64,000 nt of DNA, from assembly GCA_963749075.1 (NCBI GenBank), contig CAVVLJ010000017.1:800001-864000 (forward strand). The letters are read 5' to 3'. The first letter of the stretch is position 1, and each line of letters begins with the position of its first letter. The notes beneath the pieces were generated by a model. It made no database searches. It was given only the letters and a program-made list of their open reading frames with translations, and had not been told where the DNA came from. Positions 6,012 to 63,742 of this stretch are shown here, in pieces. Origin of the DNA: an uncultured Pseudomonadota bacterium. GTDB lineage: Bacteria > Pseudomonadota > Alphaproteobacteria > JACZXZ01. A program made the translations under genes and the position numbers.

Positions 6012-6224
6012 CCCAGCCTCCAAGTCGTCGCTAGTCTGCCACGAAGCCGCGCGGCTCTAAGTTCAGGGGATCGTAAAGTCCCCGGTCTCAATTCAACGAG
6101 GATATCCGTCGGGATCGAGAGCCACAAGGCCCGCAAGCTCTCTTGTCGCCTTGAGATGCTCCATGATGATCTGGCAGTTACCCCCGGCCAGCGCGCGTGC
6201 ACCTCGACGCGCGCCCGGCGGCCT

Positions 6225-6660
6225 CCCTCGTGCGCGAGAAGTTCCCCGCCAAGGCGGCCGTCTATGCCGTCATCCTGGCACCTCTCATCGTGCCGGGCAT
6301 CATCATCGCCATCGCCGTCTATTTCCTCTTCGCGCGCCTCCACATGATCGGCAGCCCCTTCGCCATGGCGCTCGGGCAGGCGGTGATCGCGCTGCCGCTC
6401 GTGGTGGTGATCGTCTCGGCGACCCTCCAAGGCTTCGACGAGTGCCTCGAGCAGGCGGCCGTCGTGCCGGGTGCTGGGCGCGTCAAACCTGCTGCGGCGC
6501 GCGCGCCCCTCGTGCTCGCCGTCTCCGAGCCGCAAATCACCGCACCCCATCCACCGCCCGAGAGCGGATATACGCGGCCTCGCGTAGGTCCAACCCGGTT
6601 AATGCCGCGAGCTTCCGCTTCCGGTCCGGAAGCGGCCATTCTTTACGCATCGCCGAACGT
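6225..6660 (+). pseudogene. Degenerate duplicate of the potC-like 3' end and downstream DNA (direct repeat copy 2)
   Basis: Near-identical to 1141-1376, then jumps to ~1619; also lacks ~1708-1755, which lies between two CCGCTTGA microhomologies in copy 1. Confidence 0.85.
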
Positions 6661-6780: not shown

Positions 6781-6859
6781 CGCTGCGCTTTTCCATGAGT
6801 AAGAACTCGATCAATGGGTTTTGGTAATATCTCCCCAAAGGAGGGGGGAACTCAGGATC

Positions 6860-7632
6860 ATGGAGCGCCCACCGGAGCCGGCCGCCTTCCTTCGATCGGT
6901 CACATTCGATGTGCGGCGCGGCTTGTTTCTGGAAGCCATTGCCGCCAGCATCCGAATTCAGGGGCTGTGCATCCTCAAAAATGTCCTGACCCCGGATGGA
7001 CCGCTGAAAATTCACGACCGCTTTAACGGCTGGTACGAGAGCGCCAAGGATGACAATGGCGACGGCAAGAACGACCGGGTGCTTCAATCCGCCTTGACGC
7101 TGCCTAATATCCCCGGGCTCGCGGATACATTCATCTCATTTCTCGCCGCCAGCCGCTTCCCCGACATCGGCCGCCATTATTTCTCCTGCACGACGGGCAA
7201 CCTTGTCATTCCCGAAAACCATGTCCTGCTGCGCGTCCTCAGCGACTATACCCATTCGCTACTCGTCCGTCGTTCGACCCGGCGGCATAATTTCCATCTC
7301 GACTACCCGTTAATCCCCATAGTTTCCCGATGAATGTATGGATTCCGCTGACGAAAATCGACCAGGACTGCCGCGGGCTTTCTTTCCTGTTACCCTACAC
7401 CGAAAAGATTTACGATCTGCCGCTGGATATCGACGGCATCATGGCGGCCACTAATGGCTATGTCGTCACGCCGGAAGCAGAGGTCGGCGATATGTTCCTA
7501 TTTACCCATAAGACGCTGCATGGGGTGTTCTTCACACCGAAAAAGATAAGGCCGCGCCTCAGCATAGAGTTCCGCGTTGGCCCCTCCCATATGCTCCCCA
7601 AAGATTATAGCGACGTGCTCTACCGCCTTTAG
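6860..7632 (+). pseudogene. PhyH-like Fe(II)/2-oxoglutarate dioxygenase split by a frameshift near 7315-7330
   Basis: HLD (HxD) in the first frame; NVWIPL, GDMFLF..HKTLHG and RLSIEFR in the second; one extra C in the CCCC run would fuse them; lower GC than flanks. Confidence 0.65.
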
Positions 7633-7765: not shown

Positions 7766-7827
7766 GCTTCAAGGGGGAACGGATCAAAATGATACACTAC
7801 CGGCCGCAATGCCCGCGAGCGGTCGAT

Positions 7828-7900
7828 GGTCCGAGAAGGGTCAGGGACGGCCGAAGCGGAATGCCCGCGCTTGGTCCGATCAGCCCCCCGCAACGGACCT
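7828..7900 (+). repeat. Paired-hairpin repeat, uninterrupted twin of the group II intron target site
   Basis: GGTCCGAGAAGGGT^CAGGGACGGCCG...AATGCC...GGTCCG...CAACGGACCT aligns with the rejoined flanks of the intron. Confidence 0.7.
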
Positions 7901-8060
7901 TCTGTGGCGTGCGCGCCCCCCCGGCCCTCGGTCGAACGTCGCCGGAGCGACCCCCACTGGGCCGGCACCCCCTAAATCCCAACGGGTCCTCCGGGATGGC
8001 GTACGGATCGTATTCCGCGTACCCGATGAGCATCCCCTCGACATGGGTCCGCTTCGTGCC

Positions 8061-61373: not shown

Positions 61374-61469
61374 GCGAGTGATTCATATCAAACGCCTGCT
61401 ACCCTGAGCGTAGGTCCGTTGAGGGTGGAGAGCGGACCTGATGCGATGGCATTTCAAGGGCCGTTCGTG

Positions 61470-63452
61470 GTAGAGTCGAGGTGTGGCGCGGTGGCTGTAG
61501 GCCGAACATATCTGTTCCCGCCCCTTTCGTCTGGCGGTGCCTCACTGGTTCGACCTTGGCTCCGTTTCCACACCCCGCTCATCGAACCGGACGTGCGGAT
61601 CTCCCGCATCCGGCTCTCGGACAAGACCTCACGCTTTCACCCACGCCACGTCGTGTCCCAGCCGGGTCAGGCGTACGAGCCCGAAGTGCCCGTAGAGGTG
61701 CGGGAGTGGATAGCTCCCGCCCTTGCGCCGCCTGACTTTGTGCTTGGAACGCAACCACCGGCGCAACCGCACAGCCGTGTAGTTGTCGAGCGCCCGGTAC
61801 GCCTTGTTGACGGTGCCTACCTGGAAGTAGTTCGCCCATCCGCGCAACGTGCGGTTCAACTTGCCCACCAGCTCCGTGGTCTCTTGCCAAGTCCCCGATC
61901 GGGCGGTCAGCACGTGGACCTTCTCCACCACGCGCTTGATGCTCTTCTTCGATGGCCGGTGACCCAGGCGTGCCTGGCCGGTCCTCGCTGAATACATCCG
62001 CCCGAACGTGTATCCCAGGAAGTCGAGCTCCCCTTCCGGTACCTTGCAGATTCGTGTCTTCTCCTCGTTGACCGTGAGTTTCAGCCGACTCATGATCTCG
62101 CGCAGTCGTTGCAAGGCCTCCTCGGCTTTGCCCTTCCTGCACAGGATCACGAGATCGTCGGCGTAGGTCACGATGCGCGTGCCGAGACTTCGCTCGAGCC
62201 CGAGCTTCTTCCACCCCAGCACGAACCGGCGCATGTAGAGATTTGCCAGCAATGGTGAGATGGGTGAGCCCTGCGGGATGCCGCGCCGGGTGTCCCGGGC
62301 TTCGGTCGTGCGTGTCTTCCGTCCTCGATCGTCGGTTTCTTCCACGGGGCATTCCAGCCACATCTTGAGCAGATGCAGCACGCGCCGATCGACGATGCGG
62401 CGCGCTACCGACTTCAACAGCTCGGCATGGGGGATGCTCCCGAAGTAGTCCGCGAGATCGGCGTCAACGACTTCCGGATGGCCACGGAACAGCAGCTCTC
62501 CCACCTCGCCTACCGCCTGTTGGGCGTTTCGCCCGGGACGGTAGGCGTATTGCTCCGGTGGAAGGCCGGCTTCGAAGATCGGTTCCAGCACCAGCATCGC
62601 TGCTGTCATGCAGACCCGATCCCGCAAGGTCGAGATGCCCAGCGGCCTGAGCTTGCCGTTGGCCTTCGGGATGAACACTCTTCTGATGGGGTCCGGCCGG
62701 TAAGTCTCCTGCCTGAGTGCAAGCACCAGTTCGCCGAGCCACCGTTGCACCCCGTATGCCTCGATGTCCGCGAAGTCCTGTCCATCCCCTCCCGGAGCGC
62801 CCTTGTTGGAGCGGCACTGGGCATAGGCGTGAGCCAGGATGTCCTCACGGCTGATCTTGTCGTACAGGGCGTAAAAGCGATAGCCGGCTTCTGCCTTCGC
62901 TTTCGCGTGCAACGCCATCTGCAGTTTCTGAACACTCTTCGGAGTTGATAGGTTGCCCAATCTCCAGGTCCCTCACCGCGTATTGCGTCTGTCTTGAACT
63001 GAGGCCCCTTCCCTCCACCGGCGTTACCCGGCTTCAGCGGTACTACGAACCTCTCCGCCACCCCACGGCGCCCGGCCTGTCCCTCGCGGGCGTCCGGTTG
63101 GTCATCCCTGACCACGCCTTGGAGCTTCCCGTGTTGCGTACGCTTTCCTTGTGTACATGCTGCCGCCACTACCCCGGTGCAGCGCCTGGCCGTAGGTTTC
63201 GCTCATTCACCCAGGCGTATCAGCCTTCCCCGAAAGGGTCGTCGGGTTGGCCTGCACATCGTCCTTTTCGAGGCTTGCTCGGCGTTTACTCGCGTTGCGG
63301 CCTGCACACTCGCGCGGTCACCAATTCGTGACCCGCTATCCGAAGGCTTCAGCCATTTCGTTGCCTCCATGACTGCTCCGATTGCTTCCGGCTGGAGCGC
63401 TTGCCGGGTGGGACTTGCACCCACTGGAAAGCGCCGCCTTGTCACGGCGCAC
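61470..63452 (-). mobile_element. Complete group II intron
   Basis: 5' GTGCG at 63452; domain V GAGAGCCGGATGCGGGAGATCCGCACGTCCGGTTCG (~61583-61618); domain VI ending CTCGACTCTAC at 61470. Confidence 0.9.
61629..62960 (-). CDS. ltrA: Group II intron reverse transcriptase/maturase (no endonuclease domain)
   Basis: [33 protein letters not shown], domain X GWANYF. Confidence 0.93.
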
Positions 63453-63742
63453 ACCCTAAGCGGACTCCCCGACCGTCGACATCAGGTTCTTTTAGATGCT
63501 TAGATGGGGGACACGCAGCCGTTTCAATTCGCTCTTCCGGCTGGCCGCGTAGAGCGACAGCTCCAGGAGTTCGAATCGTCCCCGGCGCGTCAAATTCGGA
63601 ATAGCTGCCGCATCCAGGGCTTACCTCAGCCTGCGCGGGATGAAACTGGGCACCCTGCGGGCGCAAGACGCCTATGGTCGTTTAAGCTCGAAAGTGGTTA
63701 GGTAAGGCGTACACTGTCTGCGAGCTCTCGAGGAGGCAAGCC

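Follow-up and report, generated by a model that had tools for sequence, protein, structure and literature searches.

How does a mobile group II intron choose the places in which it inserts, and does an unoccupied place of the same kind lie in the same stretch of DNA? The question is raised by a stretch of 64,000 nucleotides (hereafter the window, G000:C17:800001-864000) from the genome of an uncultured alphaproteobacterium (G000, 5.49 Mb, 96% complete). A group II intron lies close to the right end of the window, and a first-pass annotation, made from the DNA letters, had proposed that it interrupts a dispersed paired-hairpin repeat with an empty twin at 7828-7900 and, by analogy with some endonuclease-less introns that target structured sites such as integron attC sites and terminators, that it targets this repeat family, which may itself be a recombination site. 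The core of this proposal, a group II intron inside a repeat with an empty twin, was borne out by Rfam matches, by the intron boundaries and by alignment statistics; the part that concerned DNA structure did not survive. The reading at which we arrived, and to which we give a probability of roughly 0.75, is that an endonuclease-less, IIB-like intron reads the sequence GTCC-N5-GGGT^C (^, point of insertion) within an element of ~80 nt, that the intron of the window occupies one such element, and that 7825-7906 is an intact empty copy.

The intron occupies 1983 nt on the minus strand (61470..63452), starting with GTGCG at 63452 and ending with CTAC at 61470, and its ends are common to four other copies in the genome. 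Two Rfam families matched it on the minus strand: RF02003 (D1-D4) at 63290-63426 with 106.7 bits (cut-off 49) and RF00029 (D5-D6) at 61470-61618 with 44.6 bits (cut-off 40). The ribozyme domains D1-D6 that define a group II intron, including the catalytic domain 5, were therefore present, and domain 4 contained an open reading frame (ORF) for a reverse transcriptase with maturase (61629..62960, minus strand). This intron-encoded protein (IEP) is 443 aa long from a TTG start, with an in-frame ATG 13 codons in; the frame is open throughout and contains YADD. As RVT_1 (1e-32) and GIIM (2.7e-16) were the sole Pfam domains detected, the IEP lacks an endonuclease domain. Without the ORF the ribozyme measures ~650 nt. 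In the RF00029 alignment, domain 5 (61584..61618, minus strand) shows a distal stem of 4 bp with GAGAU as its 5-nt loop, and is followed by a long domain 6 that extends to 61470. According to Nagy et al. (2013; PMC3753933), a 5-nt domain 5 loop is a trait of classes IIE/IIF and a long domain 6 a tendency of IIF; the intron is thus probably a mobile, IIB-like bacterial group II intron of class E/F type, an assignment that rests on these two structural traits and not on a tree. It lies antisense to both of its neighbours, two plus-strand genes.

The element interrupted by the intron consists of a 5' exon part (63453..63469, minus strand), with the cores of the intron-binding sites IBS2 and IBS1 at 63462-63465 and 63453-63456, respectively, and a 3' exon part (61412..61469, minus strand), which starts with IBS3, the C at 61469, and carries the right-end motif CGGAC at +52. 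The intron-free twin (7825..7906, plus strand) is found ~53 kb away. When the intron was spliced out in silico, global alignment of the remaining 72 nt with the 73-nt twin yielded 53 identities and a score of 28 (z=8.8), which none of 2000 dinucleotide shuffles (mean -7.9, maximum 6) and none of 20000 random genomic windows (maximum 12) attained, so that the similarity does exceed that of shuffled controls. Three details given by the first-pass annotation also proved correct, namely the GGGT^CA junction in both sites, the distance of 31 nt from this junction to the second GGTCCG, and the identical last 10 nt, a 10-mer found nowhere else in the genome. When the genome was searched by blastn-short, with either the spliced site or the twin as query, nothing beyond chance words of 13-18 nt was returned and the two sites were left unconnected; nhmmer and profiles were therefore needed. 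With a hidden Markov model (HMM) built from 36 intron-free members of the element family, all from one genus, with the consequence that diverged elements elsewhere may be missed, the spliced site scored 16.5 bits over its full length (model positions 7-76, the intron cutting it after position 19), as compared with a maximum of 10.6 bits among 26 control sites that contain the short target motif only. Because it exceeds all 26 controls, the occupied site is considered a member of the family. Iterated profiles from which the spliced site had been excluded recovered approximately ten copies and detected the spliced site over its full length with E ~0.07. Two of the control sites, C17:270632 (10.6 bits) and C4:165079 (9.3 bits), the latter within a cluster of elements on C4, may themselves be degenerate element copies. 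Metagenome contigs do not span 61469-63453 and are silent on an empty allele of the intron locus, and contigs from RNA libraries did not show transcription.

Homologous introns were gathered via the IEP because the 5' part of the intron, used as query, retrieved the intron in only three of 60 other genomes. From 537 relatives, 80 loci with an IEP identity of 86-94% were kept, which originate from Bradyrhizobium species and many alphaproteobacterial metagenome-assembled genomes. Intron boundaries were placed by blastn, both of them (GTGCG...AC) being present in 66 of 89 loci, and rows were then dropped for short flanks or, at locus L049, for a tandem intron, which left sets of 61, 58, 57 or 54 target sites that are partly non-independent. 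At L049 one intron is followed directly by the 5' end of another copy, and at L053, L061 and L065 the intron ends are 2617-3220 nt apart, which suggests nested insertions.

Pairing between intron and exons was analysed in an alignment of 61 introns whose ends were clean and whose 5' exon was available for 20 nt or more, and revealed the exon-binding sites (EBS) expected of a group II intron. EBS1 (63234..63239, minus strand; intron nt 214-219, ACCCTT) is located in the 10-nt loop of a CCCG/CGGG hairpin. Its nt 214-217 form Watson-Crick pairs with exon positions -1 to -4 in 55, 58, 59 and 55 introns, respectively, with three to four pair types per position. Further upstream, pairs were found in 10 introns for nt 218 with -5 and in 27 for nt 219 with -6, and are not conserved, so that nt 214-217 alone pair consistently. 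EBS2 (63260..63264, minus strand; intron nt 189-193, GGACG) pairs through nt 189-192 with exon positions -10 to -13 in 45, 58, 44 and 51 introns, respectively, and nt 191 displays a swap, A191 facing T(-12) in 35 introns and T191 facing A(-12) in nine of the 11 introns with T191. EBS3 (63169, minus strand; intron nt 284, G) is paired with exon position +1 in 60 of the 61 introns, as G-C in 52 and as C-G in eight. This covariation shows that the intron RNA recognises DNA by three short pairings, EBS1, EBS2 and EBS3, which together read GTCC-N5-GGGT^C.

The consensus of 58 target sites is AATGTCCGCTTTGGGT followed by C at +1. Four of its conserved positions, A-16, A-15, G-9 and C-8, have no pairing partner in the intron and agree with the consensus of the element; they may reflect contacts with protein or simply the descent of the sites. 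An intergenic, lineage-specific element of ~80 nt has the 9-nt code as its conserved left module (consensus AATGTCCGCTTTGGGT^CA). In the twin every base-paired position is intact, with GTCC at -13 to -10, GGGT at -4 to -1 and C at +1, which places the predicted insertion between 7841 and 7842 and agrees with the proposal that 7828-7900 is an unoccupied target. The twin is also one of two sites in the genome that match all six nucleotides of ACCCTT, the EBS1 of the window copy, but this counts little because homologues do not conserve the pairs at -5 and -6. Judged by its sequence, the twin is a plausible vacant target; the core code is present at a few dozen sites of the genome, of which a handful, the twin included, fall inside elements. 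No Rfam family matched it even at E<=1, and neither a promoter-like site nor a terminator was found inside it. It lies within a stretch of ~4 kb that is non-syntenic across the genus. Just upstream, at 6821-7632 on the plus strand, are two neighbouring ORFs of low GC content (170 and 100 aa) that may be one frameshifted gene.

In order to describe the repeat itself, we used R1, a sequence-only covariance model of nine intron-free element copies (alignment A1). At E<=0.01, R1 matched 15 intron-free sites in G000, among them 7826-7906 (E=2.1e-15, the twin being one of its seeds), and two to 13 sites in each of five other genomes of the genus (best 2e-12). It matched in nine of ten genomes of the family and gave a few weak matches beyond the family. 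The repeat is thus dispersed, as originally described, although at low copy number. The twin as query retrieved further weak relatives in G000, and 33 further element copies from related genomes aligned well. In the consensus, the element starts with AATGTCCGCTTTGGGTCA, has two more direct ATGTCCG repeats 11 nt apart in its middle and ends with CGGAC. TGTCC is thus present three times in direct orientation, and the right end carries an inverted copy. Element copies are intergenic and cover ~0.03% of G000. Some belong to a sub-family with an extra conserved tail of ~40 nt downstream of the right end (L111 8237-8310 and 6288-6362, minus strand; L131 of genome G003 and L132 of genome G002). The internal ATG was also considered as the start of a conserved small ORF, an idea that was dropped, as two copies have ATT there and the frames and lengths differ.

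The paired hairpins, by contrast, found no support in the family. RNAalifold returned no consensus pairs for the element, and the two hairpins drawn in the first-pass annotation paired in 61% of the alignment cells, a value attained by 269 of 500 shuffles. End-to-end pairing of GTCCG with CGGAC and of GGG with CCC reached 72% of cells versus 68% in shuffles, 38 of 500 of which attained it, and at most 57% when the arms were slid. Folding z-scores of the DNA of 12 element copies ranged from -1.3 to +1.6. The element family is defined by sequence blocks and not by a conserved fold.

Target sites in other genomes carried traces of the same element. CGGAC was found at +50 to +54 in nine of 54 such sites, versus 0.4 expected (Poisson p=5e-10), a distance that agrees with the +52 of the window, and GACAT peaked in the same bin; this supports the earlier suggestion that the intron lineage targets the repeat family. 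Eight of 53 spliced targets from other genomes scored at least 11 bits with the family HMM, above every control. The insertions fell into three registers, located after model positions 19, 53 and 64. In each of them the insertion point follows the G of a direct TGTCC repeat at a distance of 13 nt, and the introns that use it have an EBS1 matched to the sequence found there. Long alignments were obtained for all three (L023, L025, L033 and L032 at 19; L063 and L072 at 53; L016 at 64); shorter ones are ambiguous as to register because the three modules have a common core. An HMM of the right half of the element was also run against the loci, produced weak and scattered matches (best E 0.01) and was not used for classification.

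Within G000, blastn identified five intron copies at 93.6-100% identity in different flanks. Two are of full length, that of the window and one at a contig start (C22:5-1987) which is 99.6% identical. The other three, of ~724 nt each, are ORF-less derivatives at new sites (C21:567806-568529, C2:107651-108375 and C4:504791-505515), which are 93.6-98.8% identical, lack intron nt 561-1812 and have kept both ends. In all five copies GGGT precedes and C follows the intron, and positions -13 to -9 read GTCCG, GACCG, GGCCG or GTCGG; the remaining flanks of the four copies outside the window are unlike the repeat. Several similar ORF-skipping joints were seen in soil metagenome contigs.

Taken together, these data are best explained by an intron that would insert by reverse splicing into DNA at GTCC-N5-GGGT^C, presumably with priming at replication forks, as for other introns that lack an endonuclease, and that uses the family of ~80-nt elements as landing sites. 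Related subfamilies would have altered EBS1 such that each lands at a distance of exactly 13 nt downstream from one or another of the three direct repeats, sites with the short code alone would be used as well, and the ORF-less copies would have been mobilised in trans.

Several observations weigh against this explanation, and most of them favour instead a chance overlap, in which the intron needs its ~9 nt and the element happens to hold that string, so that the twin would be no better a target than ~27 other sites. The minimal motif GTCC-N5-GGGT^C is not enriched in G000 (28 empty sites versus 23 for the reversed control), and only four of the 28 lie within elements. In a genome-wide local search with the spliced site, the twin was the best non-self match but had E=3.1, for which reason the pairwise evidence alone is borderline at genome scale. 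Four of the five local intron copies are located outside recognisable elements; the spliced flanks L008 and L009 had no match to the family HMM, L007 matched in the motif region only (9.7 bits), and L005 has no 5' flank. Among the 53 foreign spliced targets, no more than the eight mentioned above reached 11 bits and 19 had no HMM match whatsoever, and many insertions in other genomes may be ectopic. The strict pattern ATGTCCGC-N3-6-GGGTC was also rare in five Bradyrhizobium-like genomes, with one to four occurrences per genome. The prospect that homologous introns would be found in unrelated sequences, which the first-pass annotation had named as damaging to its proposal, has thus come true in part, since those four local copies and many elsewhere share only the short motif. 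Nevertheless, elements that make up so small a fraction of the genome contain four of the 28 motif sites and one of the five introns, unpaired positions of the target follow the element consensus, the right-end motif is enriched (nine versus 0.4 expected), and each of the three registers is tied to a TGTCC repeat and to a matching EBS1 variant. On balance, we consider a mere chance overlap unlikely.

Guidance by structure, in which a folded DNA hairpin is read instead of a sequence, as class C introns do at terminators and attC sites, appears highly improbable. Some sites are indeed palindromic around the insertion point: the C4 copy has a perfect 9-bp inverted repeat across it (C4:504760-504800) and the C2 copy a perfect 7-bp stem that ends at it (C2:107625-107651). 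Moreover, a complement (at least six of eight) of the 8-nt arm at -14 to -7 was present within +2 to +26 in 28% of the 54 sites as compared with 11% of controls (p=6e-4), a modest enrichment. Yet EBS2 is present and covaries with the target, the ribozyme of ~650 nt has IIB-like traits, the insertion takes place inside the element and not after a stem-loop, and the hairpins are neither conserved nor unusually stable, as described above. For the same reasons the IIC/attC-like targeting of structured sites envisaged in the first-pass annotation was abandoned in favour of recognition of the sequence GTCC-N5-GGGT^C.

What the element itself does is a separate matter, on which its genomic surroundings have a bearing. 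Same-strand clusters of elements with a spacing of 0.7-2 kb were found in several genomes, for instance at 512812, 514287, 514967 and 516236 of contig C21 in G000 and on C28 and C14 of G003. GC content was lower upstream than downstream of the element for 13 of 17 local copies and for 24 of 29 copies in relatives (means 0.608 and 0.650; Wilcoxon p=1.8e-4). The C21 cluster coincides with a low-GC island (C21:512800-517600, L111 4800-9600; 51-63% versus ~70%) that has four same-strand copies, two of which enclose a type II dehydroquinase gene; only one unit was shown to hold a single gene. The island also contains a fragment of an IS4/5-type transposase (DUF4096) and a 5'-truncated gene fragment which starts just after one copy. 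An IS5-type insertion between two copies in this island was examined as parent of the element family and rejected, as its ends are unrelated. For two local copies, the element marks the exact point at which synteny with 10 related genomes is lost, and R1 did not detect the element in the orthologous loci of either breakpoint in these genomes. No locus was found in which both flanks are conserved and the element is absent; at the two loci, synteny ended at the element in all 10 genomes. From these features the element may be a series of protein-binding repeats placed where variable, lower-GC DNA ends, either MITE-like (miniature inverted-repeat transposable element) or a recombination site.

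It is tempting to go further and to regard the element as a recombination or mobilisation site bounding small gene cassettes, which the intron would exploit in the way IIC-attC introns do. The same-strand clusters, the lower GC upstream of local and related copies alike, the island with one gene between two copies, and the two elements placed exactly at the end of synteny and absent from the orthologous loci all point in this direction. On the other side, G000 has no integron integrase above cut-off (TIGR02249, best 78 bits versus 265) and no match to the Y1 transposase PF01797, none of 10 scanned ORFs from the C21 island proved to be a recombinase, and a reading of alignments A1 and A2 revealed no attC-type R''/R' end motifs. 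Pairing within the element is weak, and its copies are too divergent for recent exchange. A classical integron was therefore discarded, as was an origin from REP (repetitive extragenic palindromic) sequences with their RAYT (REP-associated tyrosine transposase) gene; besides lacking the Y1 transposase, the genome has only 15 copies, and their pairing is no better than in shuffles. A cassette-bounding function of the element consequently seems to us distinctly unlikely. In its fullest form, it would make the element the boundary or recombination site of an integrase-less small gene cassette system in one alphaproteobacterial family, in which the three direct and one inverted ATGTCCG repeats would bind a recombinase or transposase, and the intron subfamilies, retuned to each repeat, would be a sequence-guided IIB-like counterpart of the IIC-attC introns that could aid cassette formation; this is a speculative and rather improbable scheme.

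A further dispersed repeat of ~245 nt was noticed at 6216-6460 of the window, with additional copies at 1132-1376 (96% identical) and 1619-1859 (71%); each genome of the genus contains several copies at 66-82%.

The reading preferred here, a sequence-guided intron at home in the ~80-nt element, provides a base-by-base target code, deduced from natural covariation, for an intron lineage widespread in soil alphaproteobacteria. It also suggests how a retroelement may persist, by landing in a harmless multicopy intergenic element and by diversifying EBS1 to three positions within it. The undescribed repeat family marks the edges of variable, lower-GC DNA, and annotators can mark the empty twin, together with the remaining copies, as likely homing sites. 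If the element were a true recombination or transposition site, the pair of intron and element would extend the theme of terminators and attC sites beyond class C introns.

Among known short intergenic repeats, REP/REPIN sequences, CGTC repeats and MITEs resemble the element in having inverted ends and in serving as landing pads. CGTC repeats are common in alphaproteobacteria (PMC3733652), and two of nine group II intron copies in Pseudomonas putida KT2440 are listed as REP-associated (table, PMC1525189), an association to which the present case is likewise close. The present element differs by its two to 15 copies per genome, by the absence of a RAYT gene and, on reading the copies, of a conserved GTAG/CGTC tag, and by its three direct 7-nt repeats, which are not a feature of REPs. 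No description of the target of this intron lineage or of the element was met in the literature consulted; a matching repeat could appear in the supplements or figures of PMC3733652 and PMC1525189, and the element may be identical to a family listed there.

Bacterial introns are described as having three target specificities, namely homing sites, terminators and attC sites (PMC4424553). With class C and IIC-attC introns the present intron has in common the missing endonuclease domain, a short EBS1 pairing and insertion at repeated intergenic motifs resembling inverted repeats; those introns, however, are without EBS2 and insert after a stem-loop, whereas here EBS2 covaries and insertion occurs inside an element without a conserved hairpin. 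There is, moreover, no terminator-like site in the twin and no integron integrase in the genome. With IIE/IIF introns, as portrayed in PMC3753933, it shares the 5-nt domain 5 loop, the small ribozyme of ~650 nt without ORF, EBS1 together with EBS2, and the long domain 6. To judge from its sequence code, the case is one of sequence-guided homing with the site in a multicopy non-coding element. In logic it appears closest to RmInt1 of Sinorhizobium meliloti, which, according to PMC4181065 and PMC4615759, likewise has an IEP without endonuclease domain, reads its target through EBS1, EBS2 and EBS3, and has its homing site in a repeated non-essential sequence, the multicopy ISRm2011-2, while related introns diverge in target specificity. 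The target of RmInt1 is a transposase gene and that of the present intron a non-coding ~80-nt element; the present intron has a conserved EBS1 pairing of only 4 bp and a 5-nt domain 5 loop, and the likeness drawn here is one of logic.

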